In this document: positions 692-32,374 of the stretch, one piece after another | How the letters are laid out: each line of letters begins with the position of its first letter | Numbering within the stretch: position 1 is the stretch's first letter | Notes under the pieces: model-generated | Databases searched by the model: none | The model's input: only the letters and a program-made list of their open reading frames with translations | What the model was told of the DNA's origin: nothing | DNA from: a virus | IMG/VR virus record: IMGVR_UViG_3300026488_000022 | Coordinates: 16,615 to 80,614 of that record | DNA length: 64,000 nt | Strand: one strand, 5' to 3' | Position numbers and translations under genes: made by a program

Positions 692-726
692 TTATATTAT
701 AACTAACTTTAAGGGTTTGGACACTT
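692..726 (+). repeat. Dispersed cassette repeat, copy A (truncated core)
   Basis: taactttaagggtttggacactt matches the core of the other copies and ends at the tape measure stop codon. Confidence 0.8.
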
Positions 727-3700
727 ATTTTCCAACAACATTTCTTATAATTGTTCTGCCACTTCTACTTGTTAAATAGTCTTCAAATGCTTTTGTATCT
801 ACACTATTTAAAATAACTACCTCAGGTGTTGGGGCAGTAACATTCACTTGAGGTGAAGTATTACCACTTGCTTTAATTGCTTTAACTTCCTCTTTGCTTA
901 AAACATATTCTCCTTTTTGTAAAATTGCAGGAATTTCATCATCTTTTAACCCGCCCATTTTTTGATTAGCAGTTTGCCTATCTACATAACCTCCTGTATG
1001 AAATCTTTGTGCTTTAATAATAGCAACTCTCATCATACCTGTTGCAACCGCTAAACCAGCCGCCACATAGTTAAATGGTATAGGTAACTCTGTCATTGCT
1101 TTTTGAGCCGAAGCATAAGTATCAATTATTGCTTGTGCCACCCTCATTGCCTTATAAACTGCAAACCATTTTTTTTGTTTTATTAGTCCTGCTTGCATCA
1201 TTTGGTCTAACATACCAGAAAATTGCCCTATATAACCGCTTAATGCTGACAAAGACGCATTAAAACTTGCTTTTTCAAGAGCTTTTCTTTTTTCTATTTC
1301 ATTTTTTACTATCTCAGTTTTTAAAGCCTCTAATTTTTTATAAGCCTCAGCTTCAGTTATTCTTTTAGACTCTAATTCTTGTAAAATTTCTTGTTCTTGA
1401 GCTTGTATTAAAGCTTTTTTTTGTGCATAAAAATTTTTAATAGCCTGAATTTGTTGTTGATATTGATTAAAAGCATTAACTGCACCAGCCGTACCACTAT
1501 CAACATTCCCCGGCACTATACCTAATTTAATTTCTTTTTCTTTTTGTTTTAATTCTTGTGCTTTTGTTTTAATATAAGCATTTATATTTCCAAAATAAGC
1601 GTTTAGTTTTTCTTTATCTTTTTCACTATCAAAACTAACAATACTTAACTTTCTTCTATTTTCATACATTTTATTTTGTATATCTAACAAAAGAGCGTCA
1701 GCTGGATTTTGCATTGCTTTAGTTTCTCTATTCATTTCAGCGATTGTAGCTTTAATCCTTTGTCTTATTTCTAATTCTTTAATTTCTGCCTGTAAAGTTC
1801 TTTTTTTATACTCCTCTTCTTTTTGATATAAACCTTTAATTTCACTTTCTAATTCTCTTTTTTTAGTTAAAAGTTGGGTTTTTTGTTCTTCATCTTTATA
1901 ACCTGTCCATTTTAAACGTTTAATTTTAGCTACTAAAGCATAATACTCTTTTTCTTTTGCAACTCTTTGGTCATAATAAGTTTTATACATACCGTCTAAT
2001 CTTTGTATTTCTTTTTGAGCCTCTACTAAATCATTTACAATAGGCATACGACCTGTTGCTTTTACCTTTTCTAAATCAGAGAACGCTTGTCTTAGTTTAT
2101 CAGCCAATCTTTGAATTTCAGCCTCTACTTCACCAAAATCTTTAAAATTAAAAATATCTTTAATTTGATAATCCTGCCATTTAACCTCTAATGATTTTTT
2201 AGTAGAGTTTGCTTTATTAGCTACTGAATTTAAAGCATTCAGTCTTGCTTTTAAAATACCTTCTAAATTTGCAAAATCTTTGTCAAGCCCTTCTAAATAT
2301 GCTTTTAATGCTTGATATGTATTTTTATCTAAGCTGTTTTTAGTTTTATCTAACAATAATTTCAATCTTATAAATTCAGCCTCTAATTTAACAACTTCTT
2401 TAGGGTCAGTAGCATTTGCAAGCATAGTTTTAAATTGTATAAATTCTTTAGCTAAACTTTCTGGTAAAACATTGACATCAATTTTAGCTTGTTTAAAGCT
2501 AACTTCCATTGTATCTACAAGACCTTTTACTGTTTCTCTAAAAGCATTATCAAGCTCTGTATTTAAGTTATTTACTAAGTCAGTTACATCAAGCCCGTTT
2601 TTTAAGAAAAACTTAATCTTTTCTGATAATTGTTGAAATCTTTGAACTTCCTCTTTAGTTACTAAAGTAATTAAACCTTTTTTAGTCTCGTCTTTTATTT
2701 CTTGAACATCTCTTTTTACTTTATCTTTAAAAACACCAAAATTCACAGTTAGCATATCAAAAGGATTAGTATCTAATCGAATACTATTTAATGTAGTATC
2801 TATCTGTTTTATTTTTTGATTTAAAATTTCACTTTGTTTTATAGGTGTTGTAAAATCTATTAAATTCTGTTCCCAAGTAGTATTAGAAACACCTTGTGCT
2901 ACGTTTGGTGTTTGTTCTTTATAAGGAGTAAAAACACTTACAGTCTGTGCTACATTTGTTTTAGGTTTATAATTAGCAAACTCTTTTAATTTTTCTAATT
3001 GTTTTTCTATAACAATAATTTGATTTTCTAATTCTTTTGAATTTGTTTTTAAATACTGAGACCTCAATCTTTCTAACTTAGCACTTAATAGTTGGTATTC
3101 AACATATTTTTGAGCTTTATCAACTTCTTCTTGTTTTTGTTTAACTAAATTTTCTTGTTCATTAATAATCTTTTTATACATTTCTAATTGTTGCTCAATT
3201 TTGTTTAACTCACTGCCTAATAATTTAATTCTTTGACTATCATTATTAACCAAGGCTTCTGCTAATTGTTTTTTAATTTGTTGTTTTTTAGCTATTAAGC
3301 TATCATATTGTGAGATTAAACTGTTTAATTTCTGTTGTTCAGCTAACAAACCATTACTTTTTGCTAATTCCTCATTTACATTTTTAATTGTAAAAAACAA
3401 CTTACCAAAAGCACCTAAAGCTAAAGTTGCCACTAAAACATAAGGATTTCTCATTGCAATTAAAGCAACACTTGTTAAAGCGCCCCCAATTGCTTTAACA
3501 ATATCTAAAAGGTTTTTACCTGCTAAAGTAGCCATTCTAAATGACTCTACTAAAGACTTAACACCTTTAAAAATTAATACACCTCCAATAACTCCTGCAA
3601 TACCTTTGATTATACTCCATATTTGACTTAAATCTCTTTGAATTTGTGGCATAGCATTATTAATAGTATTAACCCACTCAATAGTTTTATTAACTATACT

Positions 3701-6681: not shown

Positions 6682-6689
6682 TATATCAG
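6682..6689 (-). promoter_or_regulatory. Putative late promoter (CTGATATA)
   Basis: 33 bp upstream of the tape measure ATG. Confidence 0.7.
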
Positions 6690-6878
6690 TATAAAATAAA
6701 AGTAAAATTTAATTTAAAAGCTCTATTATAATATATAATAACTTTAAGGGTTTGGACAGTGTTGGACAGTAACAAAAAGCCCTAAAATTCGGACTTTTAA
6801 CAACTTGCAAACATTTATAATCAGTAAAAAATATCATTTGGGCGGTCAAGAACATTTTATAATTTTTGTAAAAAACTC

Positions 6879-6938: not shown

Positions 6939-7331
6939 TTGAAAATGAAAACTACATTTATAAACACAAGAGCAGATTTAGAAAAAATGCTAAAAGAAAC
7001 AAACAAAGAACTTGCTCTTAAATACTTAGAAATATTTAAAAATAGAATAATTTGGGGACAAGCTGAAAAATTTGACAATAATTATTATATAGACATTACA
7101 TTATTTGAAGACACTGATAGCATAAAAAGAGTTAAAGTATCAAAACCAATATTAGAAAATTCAGAGGATGTTCAAAGGTTTATTATGTTTTGTCTTGATG
7201 AAAAAGATTATATTCATTATTCGAATATAATCACTGATAAAAAACTAATAGGTTTTATAAATGAATTTTATTTAGACTTAATCTCTTATCACCATTTAAA
7301 AGATGAATTAACAAAGGAAAACAATGAATAA
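6939..7331 (+). CDS. Hypothetical cassette cargo protein
   Basis: 130 aa ORF behind the cassette promoter/RBS, antisense to the structural genes. Confidence 0.75.
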   Translation: MKMKTTFINTRADLEKMLKETNKELALKYLEIFKNRIIWGQAEKFDNNYYIDITLFEDTDSIKRVKVSKPILENSEDVQRFIMFCLDEKDYIHYSNIITDKKLIGFINEFYLDLISYHHLKDELTKENNE

Positions 7332-7584
7332 TTATCCTATTCTTTCATTTAGAGTTTATAGTGTTATTTATAGGGCTTTAGAAAACAAAAAAGCTAAGAT
7401 AACATTAAAACACAAGAAAAAAGGCAATTTTAATGTAGAACATTACATAGTAGAAATTAACAACCCCACTTTAAAAGGAAGTGCTATTAGAACATACAAA
7501 CAATATTTTAAAGATAAAAATTTAGAAAAATTTAAAGAAATAATAAATAAAAATGAAAAGATAATTTTTGAAAAGTTTGAGTAA
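7324..7584 (+). CDS. Hypothetical cassette cargo protein 2
   Basis: 86 aa, overlaps the previous stop, AAGGA RBS. Confidence 0.7.
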   Translation: MNNYPILSFRVYSVIYRALENKKAKITLKHKKKGNFNVEHYIVEINNPTLKGSAIRTYKQYFKDKNLEKFKEIINKNEKIIFEKFE

Positions 7585-7585
7585 A

Positions 7586-7603
7586 GGGCAGATTTTTCTG
7601 CCC
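7586..7603. terminator. Hairpin between the convergent cargo and capsid genes
   Basis: gggcaga-tttt-tctgccc. Confidence 0.65.
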
Positions 7604-7614
7604 CCTCAAACGTT

Positions 7615-8829
7615 TTAGTTAGAAGCTACATTAACAATTACAGAAACAGGTGTAGAAGTTACAGAAAGTTTCTTAAAGTCAATATCTCTATATCCAACAT
7701 ATAGAGTTGTTGAACTAACTGCTTTTCTTTCAGTTTCAATTCCAATGTTTCCTCTATCAGCAACACCAAAATATGCTTTATTAACAAGTAAAACTGCTGT
7801 TTTGTCTCCATTTGTTTCATCAACATCACCATTAGCGTCAAGATTATCAGGGATATACTCAGTTACTACAATAGGCATACCAAATAATTTCCCAATCTCA
7901 CCTGTGATAATTGTAGCTTTAGCACCATATTTATCAATTGTTAGAACTTCTGGAAGTTCAAGCATTTGATATGCTACATTAACAGGCGCTACAATAGCAA
8001 GGTCACTTAAATTAATACCATAAACTCCAAGTAACCTTCTTGCTTGCGCTATAAGACTTGCAGTTACTGTATTTCCACCTGCATCAACTTTATTTCCAGC
8101 ACTTTTAGCGTATTTTAAAAGACCATCAAATGCTTTTTTAACATCATTAACATCAGAAATACCTGTATCACCCATTACAAGTGCGTCTTCTGTGGCTCTT
8201 GCAAGTGATTTTACAAGTTCTTGTCTAACAAGTTGTGTAATAGCTGTTACCATTTCTTTGTCTGCTTGGTCAGTTACTGCTAAAAGAGTTTTAAATCTTG
8301 AAGTTGCAAAACTCACTTTTGCACCATTAATTGCACTTTCAATTGCGTTATCACCAGGAGCAATCAAATAAGCTTTTGCTTTGTCTGTTTTTGCAGGAAT
8401 AGAGAACGTACTTCTATTATCAGGCATTCTAAATCTTTGAAATAATCCTTCAACTTTAAGGTCAAGTTCAAGTTCTTCAAGCACTCTATTTGAAAATTCC
8501 TCAGCAAGCCAACTTGCAATGTCTGCTGGTTTAATTGCTTTTTCAACAATAGGAGCAATCTCTTTAAACTCCTCAAAAGTCTCAACAGGTCTGCCTAATA
8601 GCTTTGATTTAATATGCAAATCAACTGCTTTTTCTCTTGCTTTTTCTACTTCTTTATCGTCATAAGCTTTTGTTTCAAATTGAGTTTTTCTGTTAGACCA
8701 TTTATCTTCAAATTCTTTTTTAAGTTCTTCTACTTTTTTTTCTGCTTCAGTTTTAGTAGAGTCAAGTTGTTTTTTAAGTTCTTCTACTTCTTTTTGTAGT
8801 GTAGAAATTGCTTCAATACCCATAACCAT
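7615..8829 (-). CDS. Major capsid protein (HK97 fold, T5-like, N-terminal coiled-coil delta domain)
   Basis: 404 aa with a coiled-coil N-terminus, EDALVMGD..KKAFDGLLKYA and VLTIDKYGAKATIITGEIGKLFGMPIVVTEY. Confidence 0.9.
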   Translation of the reverse strand: MVMGIEAISTLQKEVEELKKQLDSTKTEAEKKVEELKKEFEDKWSNRKTQFETKAYDDKEVEKAREKAVDLHIKSKLLGRPVETFEEFKEIAPIVEKAIKPADIASWLAEEFSNRVLEELELDLKVEGLFQRFRMPDNRSTFSIPAKTDKAKAYLIAPGDNAIESAINGAKVSFATSRFKTLLAVTDQADKEMVTAITQLVRQELVKSLARATEDALVMGDTGISDVNDVKKAFDGLLKYAKSAGNKVDAGGNTVTASLIAQARRLLGVYGINLSDLAIVAPVNVAYQMLELPEVLTIDKYGAKATIITGEIGKLFGMPIVVTEYIPDNLDANGDVDETNGDKTAVLLVNKAYFGVADRGNIGIETERKAVSSTTLYVGYRDIDFKKLSVTSTPVSVIVNVASN

Positions 8830-8855
8830 ATCCTTTAATGTTATTTTACAAAAGT

Positions 8856-8863
8856 TATATCGG
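8856..8863 (-). promoter_or_regulatory. Putative late promoter (CCGATATA)
   Basis: 27 bp upstream of the capsid ATG. Confidence 0.7.
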
Positions 8864-8868
8864 AAAGT

Positions 8869-9033
8869 TTAATTAGATTTATTTTTAACAAATTTTTCAT
8901 TATATTCTTTTATTTGTTGATTTAAAAAATCATTAATCTTTTTCAAATCATTACGCTCTTTAACACAGATTTTATAACGATTAAAAAGTTCTTCAAATTC
9001 ATTTAGAGGAATTTCTATCATTTTCTTTTTCAT
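8869..9033 (-). CDS. Small coiled-coil protein (54 aa), possibly spanin-associated
   Basis: MKKKMIEIPLNEFEELFNRYKICVKERNDLKKINDFLNQQIKEYNEKFVKNKSN. Fills the gap after the lipoprotein and is below the ORF-track cutoff. Confidence 0.5.
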   Translation of the reverse strand: MKKKMIEIPLNEFEELFNRYKICVKERNDLKKINDFLNQQIKEYNEKFVKNKSN

Positions 9034-9211
9034 CTTTTACCTTTATATGTAAAGTAATAGGTTTTGTTTTTGTTATATTATATTCATAAGTTTGTAAAGC
9101 GGGACATTTAGACTTTACAAAAACATATTTAATTTTTTCGGTTTCTTTACAAGCACACCCACTAAGGAATAGTAATATTAACATCACGCTCAAAAGTAAT
9201 ATTTTTTTCAC
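8999..9211 (-). CDS. Lipoprotein, o-spanin (Rz1-like)
   Basis: Signal peptide with lipobox LSGC, overlapping the 3' end of the i-spanin gene. Confidence 0.7.
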   Translation of the reverse strand: MKKILLLSVMLILLFLSGCACKETEKIKYVFVKSKCPALQTYEYNITKTKPITLHIKVKDEKENDRNSSK

Positions 9212-9482
9212 TATTTTTTCCTTCTTTTTTTATTATTTCTTCTTTAATGTTTTGATATTTATCTTCAAATAAAATAACTTTTAAATCATTTTTAATTTTC
9301 TGTAATTTAACTTCTAAATTCTCTTTTTCTCTTTTTAGTTTTTTAATTTCTTTTTGTTTTACTAAAATTTGTTGTTCTAATTTTTTTACTTCTAAACGAT
9401 AATTAACAACTCCTGCTAATAAAACCAATACAATTCCACTTATAAAATAAGAAAACAATTTAGTTTTTAAAAAATCAAACAT
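9162..9482 (-). CDS. i-spanin (Rz-like)
   Basis: N-terminal TM helix followed by a coiled coil, overlapping a lipoprotein gene. Confidence 0.7.
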   Translation of the reverse strand: MFDFLKTKLFSYFISGIVLVLLAGVVNYRLEVKKLEQQILVKQKEIKKLKREKENLEVKLQKIKNDLKVILFEDKYQNIKEEIIKKEGKNSEKNITFERDVNITIP

Positions 9483-9696
9483 TTGAATTTTCCTTTAATT
9501 TTGATTTTTCATAACTTCTTCCAGCAATCCAAGCTATCGGAATACCCACAGCAATTGTAGTCCATAAACTTATCAAACTTTCTTTTAAATTTAAAACCCC
9601 AAAACCTTCAAGCAAAGTAATTAACGCACTAAAACACAGAACAAACCAAGACATTAAAGGTCTTGATGTGTTTCTAATTAATTCGACTTTATTCAT
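9475..9696 (-). CDS. Small 2-TM membrane protein, holin-like
   Basis: 73 aa, two TM helices, GRSYEK C-terminal motif, next to the spanins. Confidence 0.55.
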   Translation of the reverse strand: MNKVELIRNTSRPLMSWFVLCFSALITLLEGFGVLNLKESLISLWTTIAVGIPIAWIAGRSYEKSKLKENSNV

Positions 9697-11107
9697 CTAA
9701 CTTAAGTTTCTCGTTAATAGTTTTTTCTATTTCCGTATAAACCTCAAACAATAAATTCACATCTTCTTTTTCTTTTAAAAATTTTAAAATTTCATCTTTT
9801 GTTAGTGCTTTTTCACTATTAACAGATTTTTTATTTCCTTGGTCATCTCTATCTGCAAAATACTTTTTCATAAAAGCTAATAGTTTTGCAACCTCACTTC
9901 TACCTATAATAAAATCATAAACATTTCCATCATCTTTAACATATCTTCTAATTCTATAACCTAAAGGTGGGTTAGGATAAGCTGTTAAAACACTGTTTTC
10001 AGTTACATTAACAATCAACTCACCTTGTTCTCCTCCTTGTAACTGACTTCCCTCCTCTGCACCTTGTGCATCACTAATAATTTGATTTACTTTATCTTTT
10101 CCTAAATTTGTAGTTCCTCCACGTTTAGCTTTTGTTTGCATATTTTCAACCTCCTTAATTTCAGAATAAACTTTTTCTACTTGTGACTCAAATTCTTTTA
10201 CCATATCTTGTAATTCTTGTGGTATTTCTCCTATCAGTTCCTGTTTTAACATTTCTTTATAATGTTTTAAAAGATGCCTTGCGGCATCTCTTTTTTCAAC
10301 AGCACTAATATTAGGATTGTTTCTTGCACCTCTTAGTGCTTGATAAGCCGCAATCACACCATTTTTATTAACTATTAAATCTTCACCTTGTAATTCGTGA
10401 TGAGGAAACTTCCAAGTACTTCTAAGTTCTGGGTCTCCTACAACTAAATACGCTTCTTTAATATAGTTTAATTTACCCATTTCAGCTAATTTTTGTCCTA
10501 AAGCAGTCTTATCTACTTCTGACCAAGGTTTAGTACTAATTACGTTATTTTTTATTGCTTTTTCTTTCATTTTTTTATTTCCTTTCTTATTGTAATTTTG
10601 TCTTGTTGAAAGCAAACAAACTCCACTTTCACAAGGACTGCTTTCTAAAACATTAAACAAGCTATCTTGATTATCTGGTATTGAAACGATACTAACTTCA
10701 TAAAGCTCAATTTTAGTCCAATACCAGATACCATTCACCTCTTTGTATTCAAGCCCTCTAAATCCAATTGAAAAAGCCTTTAAAATACCCTCTTTTACAG
10801 CTAAATAAACTTTTGGGTTTAAATCTTTATAAACAACAGCCTCAATTTCAAGCCCTTGAGCATTTAAATTAATATTAGTAACTTTACCAACAACATCACT
10901 TGGATTATGCTGATAAAGCAAAATAGGATTTTTCATATAGTTTTTTAAATCGTAACTTTCAGGCAAAACACTTTCGTCACTTCTATCAATAACCAAATTA
11001 CCGTTATCGTCGATATAACGATTAGCATATCCTTTTATTGTTATTTTTTCATCAGTAACTTCTGTTGAAAATTCTTTTATAATCAAATTTAAGTTTTTAT
11101 CCATCAA
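9689..11107 (-). CDS. HK97-family prohead protease with C-terminal extension domains
   Basis: IKGYA..IDRSDE, NPILLYQH, AFSIGF and ELYEVSIVSIPDN motifs, followed by a WKFPHH..GVIAAYQALRGAR domain. Confidence 0.9.
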   Translation of the reverse strand: MMDKNLNLIIKEFSTEVTDEKITIKGYANRYIDDNGNLVIDRSDESVLPESYDLKNYMKNPILLYQHNPSDVVGKVTNINLNAQGLEIEAVVYKDLNPKVYLAVKEGILKAFSIGFRGLEYKEVNGIWYWTKIELYEVSIVSIPDNQDSLFNVLESSPCESGVCLLSTRQNYNKKGNKKMKEKAIKNNVISTKPWSEVDKTALGQKLAEMGKLNYIKEAYLVVGDPELRSTWKFPHHELQGEDLIVNKNGVIAAYQALRGARNNPNISAVEKRDAARHLLKHYKEMLKQELIGEIPQELQDMVKEFESQVEKVYSEIKEVENMQTKAKRGGTTNLGKDKVNQIISDAQGAEEGSQLQGGEQGELIVNVTENSVLTAYPNPPLGYRIRRYVKDDGNVYDFIIGRSEVAKLLAFMKKYFADRDDQGNKKSVNSEKALTKDEILKFLKEKEDVNLLFEVYTEIEKTINEKLKLDE

Positions 11108-11128: not shown

Positions 11129-11136
11129 TATATCGT
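11129..11136 (-). promoter_or_regulatory. Putative late promoter variant (ACGATATA)
   Basis: About 22-25 bp upstream of the protease start. Confidence 0.5.
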
Positions 11137-11147
11137 CTTAAAAAATT

Positions 11148-11288
11148 CTATTATAATATATAAATAACTTTAAGGGTTTGGACACTTTGGACAGTAACAA
11201 AAAGCCCTAAAATTCGGACTTTTAACAACTTGCAAACATTTATAATTAGTAAAAAATATCATTTCGGCGGTCAAGAGGTTTTTATAAA
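11148..11288 (+). repeat. Dispersed cassette repeat, copy C (core only, no promoter or cargo)
   Basis: ctattataat...aagggtttggacactttggacagt...cggcggtcaaga. Confidence 0.95.
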
Positions 11289-11307: not shown

Positions 11308-11805
11308 TTATACTCCAACAAAAGCGTGGTTAATAAACACAATCAATTGGTCTTGGTCAGTAACATCAAAAGCCTCATCAAATAAAAAATGGTTTAAAGC
11401 TTCAGTAGGATTATCTGGGTCATCTACTAAAGCACCTTCTATAACTCCATTTGCGACTACTTCACCTACGTCATATGTTATTTTATATGTTATAACATTT
11501 TCCCCTCCATTAGTATTTCCTTCATCTGTATAGTTTCTTTGGGGGAAACCACTATCGACAATTCTTGAACTTGGGTCTATATAAGCATTAACATCAGTAT
11601 CGTCTTTTGTAGGGTTTGAACTATCCGTTCCTAACCTTAAATATAAAGTATCTAATGAACTTGTTTCACCTATAATTTTTTTAGCATAATGAATATCCCC
11701 AGCATTTGTTACTATATTATGCCCTTTAATTATTTTTTCTTTTCCTGTTTTTTTATTAATTATTTTTACTAAAATATTATCTTTTACAATTCCTTTTACT
11801 AACAC
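11308..11805 (-). CDS. Virion structural protein (tail-associated)
   Basis: HNIVTNAG..LRLGTDSSNP pattern typical of tail collar/baseplate-like small proteins, in tail-gene context. Confidence 0.55.
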   Translation of the reverse strand: MLVKGIVKDNILVKIINKKTGKEKIIKGHNIVTNAGDIHYAKKIIGETSSLDTLYLRLGTDSSNPTKDDTDVNAYIDPSSRIVDSGFPQRNYTDEGNTNGGENVITYKITYDVGEVVANGVIEGALVDDPDNPTEALNHFLFDEAFDVTDQDQLIVFINHAFVGV

Positions 11806-11831
11806 TTTAAAACTCCTTTAATCTTTACATT

Positions 11832-11839
11832 TATATCAG
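11832..11839 (-). promoter_or_regulatory. Putative late promoter (CTGATATA)
   Basis: 27 bp upstream of the start at 11805. Confidence 0.65.
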
Positions 11840-12519
11840 AAACTGCTTTCTTTGTTGTTTTTTTGTAATTCTTTCATTTCCTCTTGTTGTATCTTATCAT
11901 AAAGTTTTAAACTTGCTAAATAAAAAAATTTAGTCTGGTCGTATAAACCGCCCTCATCTGGTAGAAAACCTTTTTCAAAAGCGTTATAACATTCAATAGC
12001 TTCTGCAATTAACTTTTTATCTACATCATAAATAGGACAATATGTATAGACTTTATCTCCAACATAAACTTTAAAATCTTTTTTCTTGTTTTTTTCTCCT
12101 CTAAAACCACAATTTCTAACTCTATCAAGTCTTTTTGCTTTACAAACTTCACATTTCCAAGTTTCAGCTTTAAATTTACTATCAAAATAAATATCAATAC
12201 TATCATAAAGTTTATTTAGCACCTCTAAAGTAACATCGCTCACTTCAAAAATAAACTTACCTACTTCTTTAATAGTATCTGAAGATAAAAAAGAGAAAGG
12301 CAATTCAACTCCCTTTTTATCTTCTATTTTTACAACTGAAAATTTAAGAGCGTAATAATATAATTTTAAAACCTCACCGTTTAACATATAAGGCTCAAGT
12401 GAGTTAATTTCCCTATAAGATAACGTTCTTAGCATTAATTCTAAATTAGGTTGAGAATTTGGAGTAATAAAGTGAATTACCTTATGACTTTTAACATTAT
12501 TTATCATCCTCTTCTTCAC
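11836..12519 (-). CDS. Probable tail assembly chaperone (second)
   Basis: Second gene after the tail tube. CxxC..C..CP and GFLPDEGGLYDQ motifs. Confidence 0.55.
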   Translation of the reverse strand: MKKRMINNVKSHKVIHFITPNSQPNLELMLRTLSYREINSLEPYMLNGEVLKLYYYALKFSVVKIEDKKGVELPFSFLSSDTIKEVGKFIFEVSDVTLEVLNKLYDSIDIYFDSKFKAETWKCEVCKAKRLDRVRNCGFRGEKNKKKDFKVYVGDKVYTYCPIYDVDKKLIAEAIECYNAFEKGFLPDEGGLYDQTKFFYLASLKLYDKIQQEEMKELQKNNKESSF

Positions 12520-12907
12520 CTAAGTAAAGTTTTGCATTTTCTGGGTCTTTAGAAATTCCTACAATTACATTTGCAATTTCAGTTATAAATGAAATAGGAA
12601 GATAATTTAAAGTTTCATCAGAAATACCGATAGTATCCCTATTAATAGGAATTTCTCTATTTCTCTCATCAAGTAAATTCCTCCAATCTACTATTCCTCT
12701 TTTGCAAACTTCCCAATTATAAGAACCGGTAGAAACACTAATACTTTCATCTTTATTTAACCTAACCATTTTATCTTCAATCTCAATGAGTTCTTTTGGA
12801 GTTAAAGGTCTAATTTCAACTGTAAAAGGGTCTTTTTCTCCTCTTTCTAAGATAGGAACATATCTATAAGTTATATCCTTTTTAGCTCTATCAATTCTAA
12901 TTGCCAT
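12497..12907 (-). CDS. Tail assembly chaperone
   Basis: Directly after the tail tube, with EIRPLT..GIVDWRNLLD pattern. Confidence 0.65.
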   Translation of the reverse strand: MAIRIDRAKKDITYRYVPILERGEKDPFTVEIRPLTPKELIEIEDKMVRLNKDESISVSTGSYNWEVCKRGIVDWRNLLDERNREIPINRDTIGISDETLNYLPISFITEIANVIVGISKDPENAKLYLGEEEDDK

Positions 12908-12942
12908 TTATTATCCTTTATTAATTAAATTTAGTTAATAAA

Positions 12943-12966
12943 GCACACAAAAATTATTTGTGTGCT
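12943..12966 (-). terminator. Hairpin after the tail tube gene
   Basis: gcacacaaa...tttgtgtgc followed by a T-rich run on the minus strand. Confidence 0.5.
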
Positions 12967-14279
12967 AAATAGAATGCCTCACCTAAAACTGGATGTTCAT
13001 ATGCCTCAAACTCAAGTTTATTTGCAAGAACACCATCATCATCTTCTACACTTACACTTGTGTATTTGATATATGGTAACCAAATTGCAAATTTATGTTT
13101 TTGTGTTTCATCGTCAGTTTCAGTTTTCATTTCAAGGAAAAACTCTGCTGTTTGATTATTTTTGAATTTGTTAAGCTCATCCCAATTTTCAAAAGTAACA
13201 GTCATACTACCTTTAACTGTTTTTTTAGTGATAATTTTCCTCATAATACCAGAACTTGTAATAGCCTCTCTATCAGAAACTTGATTTTCGATTGTTATTT
13301 CAACATCTTTACCTTCATAAGTTTTACCATCAACTGTAAGAACTGCATTTTTACCAACATATGGTATTGTTGTTAAATATTGATTTGAAAGCAAAGGTTC
13401 ATTTTCTGCTGTTTCAAAAGAACTTGCTCCTAAATCAATTGACAATGTTGCAATATCTGCAACAGGAAAACTAAATTTAACTGAATTTGGAACTGCACCT
13501 TTTAGTGTTAAACTTCTACTATCAGTCTCATCACACCCATACATCAATTTAACAGCTAAAGATTGTTCCTGACCACAAGGCTTAGCGAGTTTATATAAAA
13601 CAGCATCCCCTGTTTCGCCTTCTTGAACTTCGTAGATTTGATAAGCAACATTACTAACAACATCAATTGTGAATTTATCTCCTACTGCAAAGTCAGTAGA
13701 GCCACTAACAATTTTAAATTTAATAATACCGTTGTCATAATCAACACCTGTTGTTGCCTCAGCTTGTGTGCCACTTTCAGTTCCTTCAACACTCCAAACC
13801 TCAGCACCTGCTGTATCTGCATTTATACACTCAATAGTCCAAGTTTCAGTTTTAATAGTGTCTTCATAATACCCAAAATTAGTTAAGTTACCGTCCCCTG
13901 TGTTTCCACTATCAGCTGTGATAGTACTTTCAACTTGAGGGGCTTTGTTTGCTCTAATTACAGCCCCTGTACCAGACCCTGCCTCTTCTCTAATACCTAA
14001 TGCTACTTCTAAAACTACATTACCTGCTAAATCATTACTTCCATCTCCTAATGGAATTAGCTCAAATGCTAATGTCCCACTACCAAATTCTTTACCCGGT
14101 AATGCAGGAGCAGTAATATAAGAGTTTCTTACAACTTTTCTTTCAATAACGTCAATTTCTGGTTTTAATGCACTATCAGATGTAACTTCAACAACATCAC
14201 TGTCTGTAAATGTACCACCTTTATTAAATTCTGCTTCTTTAATAACCGCATAAAGAGTAGATAAAGTTTTATATGCCAT
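12954..14279 (-). CDS. Major tail tube protein with inserted beta-domain
   Basis: 441 aa acidic protein with siphovirus tube-like N- and C-terminal parts (EITIENQV..KKTVKGSMTVTFE) and an internal insert. Confidence 0.8.
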   Translation of the reverse strand: MAYKTLSTLYAVIKEAEFNKGGTFTDSDVVEVTSDSALKPEIDVIERKVVRNSYITAPALPGKEFGSGTLAFELIPLGDGSNDLAGNVVLEVALGIREEAGSGTGAVIRANKAPQVESTITADSGNTGDGNLTNFGYYEDTIKTETWTIECINADTAGAEVWSVEGTESGTQAEATTGVDYDNGIIKFKIVSGSTDFAVGDKFTIDVVSNVAYQIYEVQEGETGDAVLYKLAKPCGQEQSLAVKLMYGCDETDSRSLTLKGAVPNSVKFSFPVADIATLSIDLGASSFETAENEPLLSNQYLTTIPYVGKNAVLTVDGKTYEGKDVEITIENQVSDREAITSSGIMRKIITKKTVKGSMTVTFENWDELNKFKNNQTAEFFLEMKTETDDETQKHKFAIWLPYIKYTSVSVEDDDGVLANKLEFEAYEHPVLGEAFYLAHK

Positions 14280-14310
14280 TTTACCTTCCTTTTATTTATT
14301 CTACAAAAAT

Positions 14311-14318
14311 TATATCGG
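14311..14318 (-). promoter_or_regulatory. Putative late promoter (CCGATATA)
   Basis: 32 bp upstream of the tail tube ATG. Confidence 0.7.
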
Positions 14319-14325
14319 ATAGGTA

Positions 14326-15303
14326 TTATTCACCTTCGATAATACCTTCACCTGCTAATTTTATCGGACTTTTCACCACAGGATTTAACACCCTGTATTT
14401 TACATTCAATTTATCAAAACCTTCTTCTGTTATTATTTTAGTTTCTATTATTTCAATTTCTGGTAATTCTATACCATAAGAAAATTGAACATTTTTATTA
14501 TTAATTTCAAAAAATGACACTTCTTTACTTAGATAATCAATTTCAGCTAAATTTAAAGTTCTGTTAAAAAATCTTGTCTGGTCAAATAAAGCCTTAGTAT
14601 AAGATTTATTACTCATAGGAGGCAAGAAAGCATAATTTCTTTTTGCACATAAAATATAAGATACTTTTACTCCGTTTTCAAATTCAATTGTTAGTTTATT
14701 TTGATAAAGCTCTTTTAAACCTACAAAATATAAAAATTCAATATTAAATACTTTTTCGGTATTAGGATTTATTACATCTCCTATATTAATACCTTTAATT
14801 TGAATACCATAAACATTTAACAAATTAATACTTTTAACTTTTAAATCTTCCTTATAACCATTAACAAACTTAACTTCAACAACTTTACTAATATCATCAG
14901 TTAAATCCACTTCAACCCAAAAATTGCCTTTAAAAACACCTTTACTCCAGATTAAATTTTCTTTTAAAGTATCCTTAATAAGATAAAAATTGTCTTTTAT
15001 TTCTGTCTGAATAATTTTGTTTTCTAATTTATAACCATAAACTGTTAATTTTTTAAGTTTTTGTTGAGGTTTAACAAAATAAGTAGAATATAAAACACTA
15101 TAATAATTACAATTTTTTAAATTAATTTTATAATTGCAACTTTTAACAGAAGTTACATTTCCTTCTAAGGCTTTTAATAACTTATAAGAAACACTTTCAT
15201 TAATACTTTCGTTTTCTAAATTATAAACTCTTAATTTTGCATTAACAAAATTTTTATCACCTATATTTGTGTTTTCATTTATATACTTATTTATAGTAGC
15301 CAT
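14326..15303 (-). CDS. Hypothetical tail-region protein
   Basis: 325 aa ORF coupled to the upstream gene. Confidence 0.6.
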   Translation of the reverse strand: MATINKYINENTNIGDKNFVNAKLRVYNLENESINESVSYKLLKALEGNVTSVKSCNYKINLKNCNYYSVLYSTYFVKPQQKLKKLTVYGYKLENKIIQTEIKDNFYLIKDTLKENLIWSKGVFKGNFWVEVDLTDDISKVVEVKFVNGYKEDLKVKSINLLNVYGIQIKGINIGDVINPNTEKVFNIEFLYFVGLKELYQNKLTIEFENGVKVSYILCAKRNYAFLPPMSNKSYTKALFDQTRFFNRTLNLAEIDYLSKEVSFFEINNKNVQFSYGIELPEIEIIETKIITEEGFDKLNVKYRVLNPVVKSPIKLAGEGIIEGE

Positions 15304-17512: not shown

Positions 17513-17998
17513 TCATATCAGCTCCTTAGACTCTTTTAAAATCAATTCAAATAAATCTCCTACTGAAGTGATATTACCTCTACCTTTATCAAACAAAACA
17601 TCATACATCCAATCTTTCCAATAAGGCACTTTTCCATCTTTTCTTTGGGGTTTTGCCATATCAGTAAATTTAGCATAAGGCACTCCTATTTCTGCCCAAC
17701 TATGAATTATAAAACTTTCTCCTTTTTTATAACTCTCAACCTTTGTTTTAATACTATTAACTTGATTTCCACTAATTTTATAAGTAAATCTTCTTTTTAA
17801 CGGTCTTCTTTTATGGAGGTATTCAACAGGAATAGGAGTACCTAATGCTCTTTTAAGTGCTTTTTTCCAAGCTTTTAAATCTAAATCAAGATTTTTTGCT
17901 AAAAGTTCTAATTTATGAAAAGATAAATCGGGTAATTCTTTTTTAAGCCCTACCCAAGCCTCCCCGACTGATTTTTTTATCCTCACATTAGCTATCAT
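17513..17998 (-). CDS. Neck / tail completion protein
   Basis: Basic 161 aa protein with SGN..NSI and VPYA patterns, synteny. Confidence 0.5.
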   Translation of the reverse strand: MIANVRIKKSVGEAWVGLKKELPDLSFHKLELLAKNLDLDLKAWKKALKRALGTPIPVEYLHKRRPLKRRFTYKISGNQVNSIKTKVESYKKGESFIIHSWAEIGVPYAKFTDMAKPQRKDGKVPYWKDWMYDVLFDKGRGNITSVGDLFELILKESKELI

Positions 17999-18552
17999 AA
18001 TCTAAATACCCTAAAAGAATTTAACATTTTATCTACAACAGCAGGAACTTCATCATTAACTTTCATACTTTCTCTAATGCCTGTGGATAAAGAAGCTATG
18101 TTATCTGTATCTTTTGTTACGTCATTATAAAGTTTTTTTCCTAATAACAATAAACCTGATACCAACCCCTCAGGTATTAAATCAATATCATTATAACCTA
18201 CCTTATATTCAATTCGCATAATCTGATAGTTCTCTATTGAAAATAAAACAGGCAGATAAATTCTATTTAATTCTCCTATTTCAAAACTTAATAACACATC
18301 ATTTTCAAGCTCCTCGCCATCAATCGTTATTTTTATAATTTCACTTATTAGACCTTTTTTTGTATAAATAGAGTTACCATAAATTTTATTAATGCGCTCA
18401 ACTAAATCTCTTTCAAAAATTCCCACATTATAATAGTCATAAATATAACTCTCACTTATAATTAATATTTCTTTTAACAATTCATCTATTTCATCATCTT
18501 GAATATCTAAAACTTTTTTAAACTCTATTAACAAATCATCTATAAGAGCCAT
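17995..18552 (-). CDS. Head-tail connector (adaptor) protein
   Basis: FKKVLDIQDDEIDELL...IEYKVGY..IPEGL...VDKMLNSFR pattern. Confidence 0.75.
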   Translation of the reverse strand: MALIDDLLIEFKKVLDIQDDEIDELLKEILIISESYIYDYYNVGIFERDLVERINKIYGNSIYTKKGLISEIIKITIDGEELENDVLLSFEIGELNRIYLPVLFSIENYQIMRIEYKVGYNDIDLIPEGLVSGLLLLGKKLYNDVTKDTDNIASLSTGIRESMKVNDEVPAVVDKMLNSFRVFRL

Positions 18553-18592
18553 AACTTATCCTTTTATAAAACTTACAATTTTAGACCAAAAA

Positions 18593-18871
18593 TCAACTAT
18601 TTTCTTTTTTAGACTTTGCTTTTCTTTTCCTCGTTTGACTTTTGGTATGTAATTCGCTTGTGGTTTCCCTCTCTTTACGAAGTAACTCCTTTTTAGAATT
18701 TTTAGTCGTATCTTTAATCTTTTCTATTAAAACAAATTCTTTTGGAAAAGTAGAAAGCAGATATTTACCAAGCTCTTCATCTACAACATACAAACCATCA
18801 TATCTATTAGGACTAAATAAAATCCCTCTAACCATAATACCTTTACCGATAACTTTAATTTTATATTTCAT
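18593..18871 (-). CDS. Small basic hypothetical protein
   Basis: 92 aa with RBS and late promoter, of a type usually found just after capsid genes. Confidence 0.6.
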   Translation of the reverse strand: MKYKIKVIGKGIMVRGILFSPNRYDGLYVVDEELGKYLLSTFPKEFVLIEKIKDTTKNSKKELLRKERETTSELHTKSQTRKRKAKSKKENS

Positions 18872-18902: not shown

Positions 18903-18910
18903 TATATCAG
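18903..18910 (-). promoter_or_regulatory. Putative late promoter (CTGATATA)
   Basis: 32 bp upstream of the ATG at 18871. Confidence 0.7.
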
Positions 18911-19169
18911 TATAAAATAAAAGTAAAATTTAATTTAAGAATTCTATTATAATATAATAATAACTTTAAGGGTTTGGACACTTTTGGACAGTAGCAGAAA
19001 GCCCTAAAATTCGGACTTTTAACAACTTGCAAACATTTATAATCAGTAAAAAATGTCATTTCGGCGGTCAAGAGTTTTTTATAATTTTTGTAAAAAACTC
19101 TTGACATAAAGTTAAAAGTGTTTTATAATTCTAAGCATAAAACAAAAAACAAAAGGAGAATTGAAAATG
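18903..19169 (+). repeat. Dispersed cassette repeat, copy D (full)
   Basis: Near-identical to copies B and F. TTGACA 19101-19106 / TATAAT 19124-19129. Confidence 0.95.
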
Positions 19170-19292
19170 AAAAGAGATTTTAATATTTTAAAAATATATC
19201 AAAGAGAAATAAATTGCAGACCAAAAGTTGTTAAAAACAAAAAGAAATATACAAGGAAAGTAAAGCATAAAAAAGCTTTACTAAACTTTTAA
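19167..19292 (+). CDS. 41 aa basic cargo peptide, ArfA-like
   Basis: MKRDFNILKIYQREINCRPKVVKNKKKYTRKVKHKKALLNF behind the cassette promoter and RBS. Confidence 0.6.
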   Translation: MKRDFNILKIYQREINCRPKVVKNKKKYTRKVKHKKALLNF

Positions 19293-20646: not shown

Positions 20647-20654
20647 TATATCAG
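20647..20654 (-). promoter_or_regulatory. Putative late promoter (CTGATATA)
   Basis: 32 bp upstream of the portal ATG, fused to a leftover cassette RBS (aaacaaaaggagaaaaaatg). Confidence 0.7.
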
Positions 20655-20701
20655 TATAAAAAACAAAAGGAGAAAAAATGAAAAAGAAGAAAGAGCGGAA
20701 G

Positions 20702-20811
20702 CTCAATTGAAGCTTGTTTTACAAACCTCAATTGAACGCCCATTTCAGGCGTTCTAAATCAAACACCCATTTCAGGTGTTTTAAATTGAACACCCACCCC
20801 AGGTGTTCTAC
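20702..20811 (-). ncRNA. Candidate late-expressed four-hairpin small RNA (three 27-bp tandem stem-loop units plus one long hairpin)
   Basis: Units at 20731-20757, 20758-20784 and 20785-20811 with compensatory stem changes. The fourth hairpin needs G-U pairs available only on the minus strand. Own late motif at 20815-20822. Confidence 0.65.
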
Positions 20812-20814
20812 TAT

Positions 20815-20822
20815 TATATCGG
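20815..20822 (-). promoter_or_regulatory. Putative late promoter (CCGATATA) facing the non-coding hairpin array
   Basis: Motif immediately 5' of the first hairpin, with no ORF at the usual ~30 bp distance. Confidence 0.6.
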
Positions 20823-24603: not shown

Positions 24604-24611
24604 TATATCAG
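24604..24611 (-). promoter_or_regulatory. Putative late promoter (CTGATATA)
   Basis: 27 bp upstream of the ATG at 24577. Confidence 0.7.
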
Positions 24612-24629
24612 TTATATTACTCTTATAAA

Positions 24630-24721
24630 AAATTTTAAAATTTTTGTAAAAAACTCTTGACATAAAGTAAAAAATATTTTATAATTCTAAATGTAAAACA
24701 AAAAACAAAGGAGAAAATATG
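24630..24721 (+). repeat. Dispersed cassette repeat, copy E (sigma70 promoter + RBS part only)
   Basis: tttttgtaaaaaactcTTGACA(24657-24662)-17-TATAAT(24680-24685)..aaacaaaggagaaaatATG. Confidence 0.9.
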
Positions 24722-25288
24722 GCAACAATTAAACAACTTGGAGAAATTAAAGTAGTAGAAATTAGAGGGGTTGGAGAAAACATCTCCGACGAAACTAAAA
24801 GAATTTTTTTAAGTAAAAGTGGGTTAAAAATAATTGAAGAATATGAAAGAACAAAAGAAAGCAATCCTGAGGAAGCACCAAGCTGGGAAGATGTTATTAA
24901 CAAGCTTGAACTTTATTTTAACAAAAACAACAAACCTATTTTAACTGCTAAAAAAGATAAAACAAAAATAACAATTAACAAATATATTGAAAGCAGTTAT
25001 AGGGGAACTTCTTATATTGAAGAAACAAGTGAAGGAGTTACAATAGTTAGCGCAACAGGTGCTGGAAGACTTGGTGAGCATACTGAATTTATTGCTACTA
25101 TACCAGAAGGATGTTATGTTATTGTTTATAGTGGTGGGAGATATCACAAAGGTTGGACTTGTTTTAAAAATGTAGAAGGAGAACTTAAAACTTATGAATT
25201 TTACAATAGAGGCAAATATGTAGAAAAACCTGATTATGAAGACGCTAAAATAGCTTTTGGATTAATGGATTGTGCTTGTGAAGATTAA
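24719..25288 (+). CDS. Hypothetical cassette cargo protein
   Basis: 189 aa, antisense to the late operon, behind the cassette promoter. Confidence 0.8.
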   Translation: MATIKQLGEIKVVEIRGVGENISDETKRIFLSKSGLKIIEEYERTKESNPEEAPSWEDVINKLELYFNKNNKPILTAKKDKTKITINKYIESSYRGTSYIEETSEGVTIVSATGAGRLGEHTEFIATIPEGCYVIVYSGGRYHKGWTCFKNVEGELKTYEFYNRGKYVEKPDYEDAKIAFGLMDCACED

Positions 25289-26685: not shown

Positions 26686-26693
26686 TATATCAG
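26686..26693 (-). promoter_or_regulatory. Putative late promoter (CTGATATA)
   Basis: 36 bp upstream of the terL ATG. Confidence 0.7.
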
Positions 26694-26946
26694 TATAAAA
26701 TAAAAGTAAAATTTAATTTAAGAATTCTATTATAATATAATAATAACTTTAAGGGTTTGGACACTTTTGGACAGTAGCAGAAAGCCCTAAAATTCGGACT
26801 TTTAATAACTTGCAAACATTTATAATCAGTAAAAAATGTCATTTCGGCGGTCAAGAACATTTTATAATTTTTGTAAAAAACTCTTGACATAAAGTAAAAA
26901 ATGTTTTATAATTCCAATACAAATAAAAACAAAGGAGAATAAAATG
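26686..26946 (+). repeat. Dispersed cassette repeat, copy F (full)
   Basis: Near-identical to copy D. TTGACA 26884-26889 / TATAAT 26907-26912. Confidence 0.95.
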
Positions 26947-27408
26947 GAATATAGCGTAATAATAAATCTAACTCAACATAAAGCAACTGAAGAACAAAAA
27001 CAGGCAGGTGTGATAGACCTGCCAGAAAAATATCAAACAAAATTAAGAACACTTTTAACGTTTAATGAATTACCAAATTGTAAAGAAATCACTAATAGAG
27101 CTGAAAAAATAGGAGATTTAGTTTTAGAATTTTTATCAGATAATTTAAGTCCTGTTAAAAACGAAGTTGAACAAATTTTAAAATTAGATGAAATTAAACA
27201 AATTGAAGAATTTGAAAAACTAAATTTAGGTTTTATGATAGGTGGAGCGCCTTATCTTATGGGCGCTTTAGAAGAAGAACTAAGTTATTTTGGGACACCT
27301 TTATATGCCTTTACAAAAAGAATTGTAGAAGAAATAAAAAAATCAGACGGAACAGTAGAAAAGAAAGCAATATTCAAACACGAAGGCTTTGTTCCTGCTT
27401 GTATTTAA
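26944..27408 (+). CDS. Cargo protein resembling Csx20/CARF-like ring nucleases
   Basis: INLTQH.AT.EQ..GV.DLP, MIGG and PLYAFTKRIVEE...DGTVEKKAIFKH.GF motifs. Confidence 0.55.
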   Translation: MEYSVIINLTQHKATEEQKQAGVIDLPEKYQTKLRTLLTFNELPNCKEITNRAEKIGDLVLEFLSDNLSPVKNEVEQILKLDEIKQIEEFEKLNLGFMIGGAPYLMGALEEELSYFGTPLYAFTKRIVEEIKKSDGTVEKKAIFKHEGFVPACI

Positions 27409-28540: not shown

Positions 28541-28548
28541 TATATCAG
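28541..28548 (-). promoter_or_regulatory. Putative late promoter (CTGATATA)
   Basis: 34 bp upstream of the holin ATG. Confidence 0.7.
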
Positions 28549-28707
28549 TATAAAAATAAAAGTAAAATTTAATTTAAAAAACTCTATTATAATATATAAA
28601 AACTTTAAGGGTTTGGACACTTTGGACAGTAACAAAAAGCCCTAAAATTCGGACTTTGTTGATAACGTAAATTAAATTTTAGTTGTTTTTTGTTAATTTC
28701 GGCGGTA
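28541..28707 (+). repeat. Dispersed cassette repeat, copy G (core, degenerate right end, no cargo)
   Basis: Core intact to ~28657. A remnant atttcggcggt at ~28697-28707 lies inside the 3' end of the next ORF. Confidence 0.9.
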
Positions 28708-29074
28708 TAGAAGTTTTTATTATTTGAGGCAATTTATATTTAAAAAAATGATAAAATTTAACTGCATAATAAAAAAGATAACTTGTAAATTTTCCTACTT
28801 TTAAATCTAATAAGCAATTTAAGAAACATTTATCAGCCTTATCGTAGAGTTCTAAATTACAAAGATAATCGTGTAAAATAGCACAAGGTAAATAATCAGG
28901 TCTATATTTTGTATAGTTAAAAAGATATGCTATAAAAGGCACACTTGCTCCATCACTTTTAAAACCTTTTGGAATTTTTATGCTCTTATAATAAAAAGGT
29001 TTGACAACCTTAAATTTGTTATTTTTTAAAGGTTGTAACCAAACATCGCTATATTTTAACATTTTTAATTCCAA
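28679..29074 (-). CDS. DUF1353-family protein
   Basis: IPKGFKSDGASVP...AILHDYLC...KADKCF motif. Confidence 0.8.
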   Translation of the reverse strand: MELKMLKYSDVWLQPLKNNKFKVVKPFYYKSIKIPKGFKSDGASVPFIAYLFNYTKYRPDYLPCAILHDYLCNLELYDKADKCFLNCLLDLKVGKFTSYLFYYAVKFYHFFKYKLPQIIKTSIPPKLTKNN

Positions 29075-32162: not shown

Positions 32163-32170
32163 TATATCAG
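32163..32170 (-). promoter_or_regulatory. Putative late promoter (CTGATATA)
   Basis: 30 bp upstream of the ATG at 32133. Confidence 0.7.
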
Positions 32171-32192
32171 TTTAATATATAAGCTATAATAA

Positions 32193-32374
32193 TTATAAAA
32201 TGTTCTTGACCGCCGAAATGCTATTTTTCATTGTTTGTAGATAATTATAGTTTGTTAAAAGTCCGAATTTTAGGGCTTTCTGCTACTGTCCAAAGTGTCC
32301 AAACCCTTAAAGTTATAATATATTATAATAGAGCTTTTAAAACAAAATTTTATTTCTATCTTTACTTTTATTTT
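32193..32374 (-). repeat. Dispersed cassette repeat, copy H (inverted), upstream of the Rep-like gene
   Basis: Reverse complement of the core: tcttgaccgccgaaatg...gtccgaattttagggctttctgctactgtccaaagtgtccaaacccttaaagtt...tattataatagagctttt. Confidence 0.92.

Follow-up and report, generated by a model that had tools for sequence, protein, structure and literature searches.

The closest described systems are the promoter-early-stem-loop elements (PeSLs) of T4-type phages, which combine a strong sigma-70 promoter, an AT-rich upstream tract and a stem-loop with an end formed by a Shine-Dalgarno sequence (SD) and an ATG, lie mostly before ORFans, bound insertions and deletions (indels) between close relatives and form mini-circles (PMC2839356; PMC4122927). 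In the group II Campylobacter phages CP21, CP220 and CPt10, repeats separate genome modules (PMC4546147). Here we describe a family of repeated intergenic cassettes in an uncultured phage, within a stretch of 64,000 nucleotides (nt), hereafter the window, that covers bases 16615-80614 of the 80,614-bp IMG/VR virus record IMGVR_UViG_3300026488_000022. A full cassette joins a leftward, putatively late motif to a core and a rightward, putatively early promoter. Genes driven by these promoters differ between relatives, and three of the cassettes contain the breakpoints of a transposed capsid block. Taken as a whole, the explanation we consider probable is that these elements are portable composite transcription-signal cassettes that are also substrates of general homologous recombination.

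The record has a guanine-plus-cytosine content of 26.5%, and its terminase and capsid proteins reach no more than 25-29% identity with their counterparts in T5-like phages. A search of 50,697 phage records at the DNA level gave no match to this phage. The virion genes lie on the minus strand and run leftward from about position 32133 of the window (terminase, portal, prohead protease, major capsid protein, tail tube and a tape-measure protein of 1974 aa). The remaining genome carries replication genes (a DnaG-type primase, DnaB and PolA are encoded), nucleotide-metabolism genes, a sigma factor of 200 aa and Mre11-like and Rad50-like proteins. We compared the whole record (g0) with those of two relatives, g1 (83,931 bp) and g2 (78,936 bp), picked via their terminases (97% and 93% identical), and used five more distant phages with terminases ~43% identical as an outgroup. 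The exact core pattern found no match in IMG/VR, and a looser 14-base box gave mostly single chance matches, with repeat occurrences, among the matches listed, only in the two relatives. A metagenome scan for further relatives returned g2 again and nothing else, and a scan of genome contigs returned nothing close.

Used as a BLAST query against the whole record, copy D gave 14 matches with E values from 3.5e-135 to 4e-4. The family comprises nine copies, A-H in the window and Z outside it, and repeat finding, direct reading and alignment divide it into four modules. Module L is the late motif TATATCRGW. Module M1 combines an AT tract, in which there is a -10-like box, with the box CTTTAAGGGTTTGGACA, a further TTGGACA 9-10 nt downstream and then CCCTAAAATTCGGAC; module M2 is made up of a 41-nt spacer followed by ATTTCGGCGGTCAAGA. 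Module M3 is a TTGACA-17-TATAAT promoter with an A/T-rich tract upstream, followed by a CA-rich leader, an SD and an ATG. All four modules are present in copies B, D and F. The core (M1 plus M2), which the first-pass annotation had put at ~130 bp, measures ~150-190 bp and is also found without promoter or cargo in copies C, Z and G. The copies and their derivatives are the following (window coordinates except for Z):

685-726, + strand: copy A, a 42-nt fragment of the left end of the core (AT tract and CTTTAAGGGTTTGGACA box) that abuts the tape-measure stop codon
6682-6945, + strand: copy B, full, with L at 6682-6690 (driving the tape-measure gene leftward), M1 and M2, then M3 with TTGACA-17-TATAAT, leader and SD
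11129-11287, + strand: copy C, the late motif of the protease operon, TATATCGT (11129-11136), with M1 and M2 and without early promoter or cargo
18903-19166, + strand: copy D, full, with L, core and early promoter, and a palindrome with 15-bp arms overlapping the -35 box
20647-20680, + strand: minimal derivative, L joined to SD/ATG with a 10-codon open reading frame (ORF), core and promoter missing
24604-24718, + strand: copy E, L and M3 without a core
26686-26943, + strand: copy F, full, with L (driving the large terminase gene), core and early promoter
28541-28712, + strand: copy G, L and M1, then a spacer that keeps the usual 41 nt but is unrelated in sequence, and the right-hand box ATTTCGGCGGT, without promoter or cargo
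32163-32374, - strand: copy H, with L at 32163-32171 on the + strand, then an inverted core at 32185-32374
40995-41082, - strand: M3 alone, driving an early gene of 87 aa
44272-44376, - strand: M3 alone, driving an early gene of 214 aa
genome 7520-7701, outside the window: copy Z, found by BLAST with copy D, M1 and M2 only

The eight loci at which the first-pass annotation had reported related copies are real and lie where it placed them, with corrections to their content: Z had been missed, A is merely a 42-nt fragment, E is coreless and the spacer of G is unrelated. It had described H as inverted, which is true of the core but not of the late motif, which keeps its usual orientation. Two promoter-only copies, placed near 41020 and 44314, are present at the positions listed; C and G are empty, as had been said, with neither early promoter nor cargo at either; and 20647-20680 does keep just the two ends of a cassette. 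Copy H sits where the late genes and the rightward early operon diverge, and its core is inverted in all three genomes. Two further structures neighbour these elements. A strong bidirectional terminator-like hairpin, CCCCTAAATTTAGGGG, lies at 640-690, just past copy A and downstream of the tape-measure gene (-15 to -16 kcal/mol, z ~-5). In the gap that immediately precedes the portal gene, with a late motif on either side, 20700-20822 contains three tandem hairpin units with a period of ~27 nt and the stems AACGCC/GGCGTT, AACACC/GGTGTT and AACACC/GGTGTT.

M3 occurs six times, in four virion-region cassettes (B, D, E and F) and at two sites in the early region. The stretch from -35 to -10 is invariant across the six copies, with an A/T-rich tract upstream, and in their alignment identity stops at the ATG, in line with the earlier claim that it ends at or just after the start codon. 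The early promoter scores 12/12 against the sigma-70 consensus in D, E and F, and the sequence of B reads identically. Over the -35 box a hairpin is predicted whose stability is high in D (-21 kcal/mol, z -7.1) and lower in B and F (-11.5 kcal/mol, z about -2.8); E does not have it, and both early-region copies lack its left arm. No U-run follows the palindrome.

The late motif TATATCRGW is present 12 times in the window, against 1.56 expected, in every case on the plus strand and in the gap upstream of a minus-strand gene. On the transcribed strand it reads CYGATATA, which we take to resemble the -10 element of sigma-28 promoters (GCCGATAA). This late promoter is probably read by the phage's own sigma factor, which was recognised by profile matches:

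62033-62635, - strand: phage sigma factor of 200 aa, candidate reader of the late motif

This protein matches Sigma70_r2 at 30.2 bits (cut-off 24), TIGR02937 at 57.7 bits (cut-off 42.9) and phrog_351. Its best subfamily models are FliA/WhiG at 47 bits, far under the FliA cut-offs of 190-201. We infer the timing classes of the promoters, early and late, from their motifs.

Core copies within this genome are 80-97% identical to one another and 50-62% identical to their positional counterparts in the relatives, and in a tree all seven core copies of this genome form one clade with support of 100/100. The copies are also mosaic: F resembles D in M1 but Z in M2, and for one pair of variant sites each of the four combinations is found among the copies (a four-gamete pattern). 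Likeness that is greater within than between genomes, together with such mosaicism, is the sequence pattern of concerted evolution. Because of this concerted evolution, the mosaic copies and a block transposition with breakpoints inside B, C and D, we regard the cassettes as recombination substrates, in agreement with the homology-driven exchange that had been suggested before.

Two blocks of virion genes are involved in the transposition:

7615-11107, - strand: head block (protease through major capsid protein), flanked by B and C and in a transposed position compared with the relatives and outgroups
11308-18871, - strand: neck/tail block (including the tail tube), between C and D

Whole-genome BLAST against g1 and g2 detected a single rearrangement, in which the protease-capsid and neck/tail blocks are exchanged. 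Homology breaks at genome positions 23414, 27772 and 35525, which are inside copies B, C and D. In g1 and g2 the neck/tail block is bordered by the capsid and tape-measure genes, and their order of portal, protease, capsid, neck/tail recurs in all five outgroup phages, which have tight gene spacing and no box. Since the relatives and the outgroups all share this canonical order, the order in the present phage is derived.

The module content of the three cassettes bears on how this order might have arisen. In the relatives a single core separates the tape-measure gene from the last gene of the tail block. The left flank of this tape-measure-proximal core is orthologous to that of B, and its right flank to that of C. 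B continues with M3, cargo, the capsid terminator and the capsid gene, and C has the protease operon's own late motif TATATCGT and no M3. The insertion product can be read directly from these sequences, and the module content of B, C and D fits the single-crossover insertion of a circle. In g2 a truncated core lies downstream of the capsid gene, the site of one proposed donor cassette.

We therefore propose the following model, in which we infer both the circle and a donor cassette between portal and protease. A full cassette would supply a virion operon with a leftward late promoter (CYGATATA), and the cassette's rightward consensus sigma-70 promoter, with the -35 hairpin in three copies, the CA-rich leader, the SD and the ATG, would express small, fast-changing 'moron' genes antisense to the virion genes. 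Recombination between long, alike copies would homogenise them. Exchange between two direct cassettes flanking the head block would release a protease-capsid circle (or an equivalent unequal exchange would take place). Such a circle would carry core-M3-cargo-capsid...protease-late motif and would enter by one crossover with the resident core by the tape-measure gene, and the residue of excision, portal-cargo-M3-core-late motif-tail block, would be copy D. Cargo would be replaced beside the promoter, in the space bounded by a cassette and a conserved virion gene. We count the Mre11-like and Rad50-like recombination genes in favour of this recombination model.

The genes driven by M3 in the virion region are these:

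6946-7584, + strand: cargo of B, two ORFan genes of ~128 and 86 aa, antisense to the virion genes and absent from g1 and g2
19167-19292, + strand: cargo of D, a 41-aa protein, phrog_18092, with a weak DUF7230 match
24719-25288, + strand: cargo of E, a 189-aa ORFan absent from g1 and g2
26944-27408, + strand: cargo of F, a 154-aa protein of family PF27247, a sub-threshold Csx20 relative

These are the five different genes reported earlier, with the first shortened from 130 to ~128 aa. None of the five is intact in g1 or g2, while the virion proteins that flank the cargo sites are 70-97% identical to theirs, and other genes occupy the same sites, so that the cassettes do mark variable cargo, in line with the earlier claim. 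After the terminase gene, g1 has four other genes (215, 67, 225 and 73 aa) instead of the 154-aa cargo, and g2 has, in place of the promoter and 154-aa gene seen here, a promoter followed by genes of 82 and 77 aa and a pseudogene, which is a frameshifted copy of the 154-aa gene with a mutated SD. The first of the four g1 genes (215 aa; L034:6208-6855, + strand) shares 30% identity with a paralogue, the conserved early-region gene at window 46737-47423. At site E, M3 and the 189-aa gene are an insertion; the same two neighbouring genes are separated by 38-65 nt in g1 and g2. Site G, empty here, holds a 167-aa ORFan in g1 and a PAPS-reductase-family gene in g2, in both relatives with a back-to-back late/early layout made from unrelated promoter sequence and no core. 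The first-pass annotation had set identical cargo and gene order in related phages against its own proposal; cargo and block order both differ in g1 and g2.

Cargo stop codons abut or overlap the converging virion genes, and repeat finding detected no repeat family at cargo 3' ends. Between the B cargo and the capsid gene, at 7585-7615, there is a strong bidirectional terminator-like hairpin, GGGCAG...CTGCCC (-21 kcal/mol, z -4.8 to -6.5).

For the ~128-, 86- and 189-aa cargo we found no family match, and the 41-aa cargo matches solely families without known function; it has a 58%-identical homologue in the early region of outgroup phages. The 154-aa protein has more than 200 homologues in PF27247 and a confident structure model (predicted local distance difference test, pLDDT, 96.9). 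Fold searches with this model gave Foldseek E values of at least 0.13 and a best VIA Z score of 6.3, to racemase domains, with SAVED/CARF folds at Z 4.1-4.8 only. Its last 32 residues (118-149) match NF040559 (Csx20) at 35 bits, under the cut-off of 70, and PADLOC Csx20 at E 1.7e-8 over the same stretch. By these matches it is at most a distant relative of Csx20, a CRISPR-associated, CARF-related protein, and a counter-defence role appears a reasonable lead for this gene alone among the cargo. Elsewhere, a 135-aa early protein (window 39924-40331, - strand) has a near-threshold match to ArdA antirestriction proteins (26.5 bits against a cut-off of 27).

Several points weigh against the recombination model. 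The promoter classes are assigned from sequence, the comparison within the lineage rests on three genomes, and the records are metagenome assemblies, with the derived block order coming from one contig. Because g1 and g2 today have no cassette between portal and protease, the donor configuration for excision is hypothetical. None of the cargo genes is individually bracketed by two cassettes, and cargo exchange may be due to ordinary recombination in the flanking genes combined with illegitimate joins.

Illegitimate joins also figure in the first of the rival explanations, shared regulation alone. In that case the copies would be alike since the same signals are needed at many sites, and the cargo would be ordinary morons acquired by illegitimate recombination. 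All modules do resemble transcription signals, the relatives' site G attains the same layout from unrelated promoters and without a core, and the cargo 3' ends have no repeat. Nevertheless, shared regulation leaves unexplained the genome-specific variants that are common to all copies, spacers included, and equally the mosaic copies and the breakpoints inside three of them, and we regard it as unlikely.

Other rivals concern the nature of the core. The 17-nt box CTTTAAGGNNNNGGACA occurs seven times in the window, against 0.00 expected from shuffles. In 19 full or partial copies from the three genomes, CTTTAAGG, a T two bases after it and the first GGACA are invariant, and the 13 full copies also conserve a box CC.AA..T..G followed by a T-run. 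The start-to-start distance from AATTCGGAC to ATTTCGGCGGT is exactly 50 nt in all seven copies of this genome, even in G and H, in which 10 and 28 of the 41 spacer positions, respectively, are alike. Equivalent box distances in the relatives fall into two classes, 51 and 64 nt.

RNAalifold found no consensus pair in 13 copies from the three genomes, the folds of single copies are weak, with pairing partners that differ between genomes, and Rfam returned nothing for the core, either in a scan of the whole window or in a lax scan of seven copy-bearing loci. We rejected a conserved RNA structure on the absence of RNAalifold pairs and a known RNA family on the empty Rfam scans. ORFs do run through the core (43-66 aa on the minus strand in B, D, F and G; 60 aa on the plus strand in H), but a protein-coding core was rejected, given a 1-nt indel between the GGACA repeats among copies, the lack of an SD and the absence of a conserved ORF in the relatives. 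A transposon or miniature inverted-repeat transposable element was rejected as well, since the boundaries vary among copies and there are neither terminal inverted repeats nor target duplications.

With no conserved RNA fold, no Rfam match, broken ORFs and fixed box spacing, a sequence-specific DNA element fits the core best. The protein-binding function suggested in the first-pass annotation is made plausible by the fixed box spacing and the lack of an RNA fold. Our tentative interpretation of the core is that it may be recognised by a protein, as an operator or insulator array; in principle it could serve as an operator or insulator, as an origin or as a promoter whose start region is conserved. 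The flanking repeats, L and M3, could act as homology arms for the spread of the core. One gene is a candidate source of a factor acting on it:

32428-34314, + strand: lineage-specific early protein of 628 aa, adjoining H, a candidate trans-acting factor only

The 628-aa protein has no Pfam, PHROG or PDB sequence match and a single homologous cluster among 1.84 billion representatives. Residues 471-552 weakly match a resolvase-type helix-turn-helix (HTH). Its AlphaFold2 model is unusable (pLDDT 44), and Atlas leads point to HTH_7/HTH_23 clusters (score 0.92) and to archaeo-eukaryotic primase (AEP)/Prim-Pol models (template-modelling score ~0.3). An assignment as a Rep protein was not confirmed, given the lack of a family or PDB match, the one cluster and the low pLDDT. 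More speculatively, the core might be a lineage-specific cis-element recognised by an ORFan HTH protein, for example this one, that targets breaks, replication starts or transcription blocks to the cassettes and together with the standard promoter makes up an integrase-free gene-capture platform; we think this rather unlikely.

According to a related proposal, the core is an iteron-type origin or loading site bound by the 628-aa protein, as a possible primase-like Rep with a C-terminal HTH, and would be multi-copy like the origins of phages that have more than one. In its favour, the direct repeats TTYGGAC(A), spaced at 9-10 bp, have an AT-rich tract beside them, other TTCGG boxes follow at a constant distance of 50 nt, the 628-aa gene lies directly next to copy H, and the weak HTH match and the Atlas leads to HTH and AEP/Prim-Pol proteins point the same way. 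On the other side stand the missing family matches, single cluster and unusable model of the protein, the DnaG-type primase, DnaB and PolA already present in the phage, the g2 copies, which retain a single GGACA repeat, and the oddity of nine origins all in the late region. This proposal is quite improbable.

We also think it highly improbable that the core is a small RNA, transcribed either rightward from the TATAAT/GATATAAA box or leftward from a box in M2, ACTGATTATA, that resembles the late motif. In each of the three genomes the invariant CTTTAAGG is preceded, at a distance of 2-10 nt, by a -10-like box, single copies in g0 and g1 form hairpins of -11 to -19 kcal/mol, and a terminator-like hairpin is found on the minus strand at 28657-28636. 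Nevertheless, the lack of consensus pairs and the pairing partners that change between genomes argue against a small RNA, as do z-scores mostly weaker than -2.5, essentially unstructured g2 copies, the absence of an Rfam match even with lax filters and truncated copies that retain just the first ~25 nt.

The family had also been called integron-like, a label that our analysis does not support. A true integron-like or site-specific system would need a dedicated recombinase or nuclease that reads the invariant box and captures genes by the promoter. Such a system could account for the invariance of the 17-nt box, for truncated copies that end just past a GGACA repeat, for the newer genes of g2 lying between the promoter and decaying older cargo and for the common orientation of eight of the nine boxes. 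However, no integrase, transposase, recombinase or serine-recombinase catalytic family or domain is among the Pfam matches seen (in one listing the best 25 of 48 families, with some small proteins outside the scan); the one related signal is the weak resolvase-type HTH match of the 628-aa protein. Integron cassettes differ, moreover, in carrying an attC site; the cargo here has no attC-like repeat at its 3' end and is never doubly flanked, core boundaries vary, and there are no terminal inverted repeats or target duplications. Site-specific capture is thus hardly tenable.

The last rival is that the copy family or the block swap is an artefact of assembly. Exact shared runs among copies are 46-120 nt long (46-60 nt among B, C and D, 120 nt between D and F), and assembly error is unlikely because these runs are shorter than the 127-nt end overlap of all three records. 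This overlap has exactly the same length in g0, g1 and g2. IMG/VR labels such end overlaps direct terminal repeats; 127 nt is presumably the assembler's k of 127, and the overlaps may simply be k-mer overlap on a circular path rather than terminal repeats. The sequence does come from a metagenome contig, and an exact run of 120 nt is common to D and F, but an artefact is very hard to reconcile with multi-copy cores at orthologous sites in three independent records, with copies that differ by 3-20% and in module content and with exact runs among B, C and D that are below both read length and the 127-nt overlap.

Comparison of the three genomes revealed other differences. A group I intron at window 49169-49437 (- strand) matches the full RF00028 model (99.4 bits, E 8.9e-27, in a local scan; a whole-window gathering scan missed it) and interrupts the gene for a family A DNA polymerase, leaving ORFs of 613 and 305 aa; the g2 gene is uninterrupted and encodes 896 aa. 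The ThyX (Thy1) gene at window 53957-55744 (- strand) contains an intein with an HNH endonuclease domain, and its orthologues in g1 and g2 are intein-free and encode 274 aa. An HNH homing-endonuclease gene in g1 (L034:10188-10820, - strand; phrog_374, E 5.8e-39) lies between late genes that are adjacent in g0 and g2. In g1 there is also an anaerobic ribonucleotide reductase gene (L032:8023-9870, - strand; NRDD, E 6.4e-107), which this phage does not have and which hints at an anoxic habitat.

Among known systems, the stoperators of cluster A mycobacteriophages are short, asymmetric intergenic sites, nearly all in one orientation, that are bound by a phage regulator. They are a possible analogy for the invariant 17-nt box, as a lead only, and differ in that the box here is inside a much longer conserved unit. 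The morons of lambdoid phages (Juhala, Hendrix and colleagues, 2000) reportedly consist of a gene with its own promoter and sometimes a terminator, inserted between genes that are adjacent in relatives. The units at sites E and G are similarly autonomous combinations of promoter and gene. In contrast to lambdoid morons, the promoter, leader and SD here are a standardised repeat common to the sites, and the units are antisense to their neighbours.

The likeness to the group II Campylobacter phages is one of genome architecture. There, too, repeats with a shared core consensus split large modules whose order varies among close relatives, some repeats enclose extra ORFs, and single units occur elsewhere in the genome (PMC4546147). 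Their repeats, however, form long bipartite arrays that contain as many as 18 tandem units, each of 72-86 bp, and their modules are inverted (PMC4546147), whereas here each site has one composite cassette with recognisable promoters, and adjacent blocks are transposed.

PeSLs are the nearest parallel, and the comparison drawn in the first-pass annotation was apt (PMC2839356). M3 agrees with them in promoter, leader, downstream ORFans and indels. Both have a sigma-70 promoter, an AT-rich tract and an SD/ATG at the 3' end with an ORFan downstream, and in both, the motif marks the limits of indels or replacements between relatives. The stem-loop that PeSLs have over or near the -35 box has a partial counterpart here, a palindrome that is strong in D, less so in B and F and missing from E. 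For PeSLs, the mechanism put forward is homologous recombination of one copy with another by way of a circular intermediate, as in our model. The two nevertheless differ in several respects. The present lineage is other than T4-like, its terminase and capsid being distantly related to those of T5-like phages. Its cassettes lie within the virion cluster in antisense, whereas PeSLs lie in hyperplastic early regions; they number 6-9 rather than ~50; and they are fused back to back with a late promoter and have the extra 150-190-bp core. Finally, an essential head module was moved here, and not ORFans alone.

Cassette-mediated modular shuffling, experimentally documented so far in T4-like myoviruses, would thus extend to an unrelated uncultured lineage, in which the cassettes would have moved an essential capsid module along with ORFans and set strong early promoters antisense within the virion cluster. 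The standard promoter sites are natural places in which to seek counter-defence genes, and the conserved core is a defined sequence with which to test for a new pair of regulator and DNA site.

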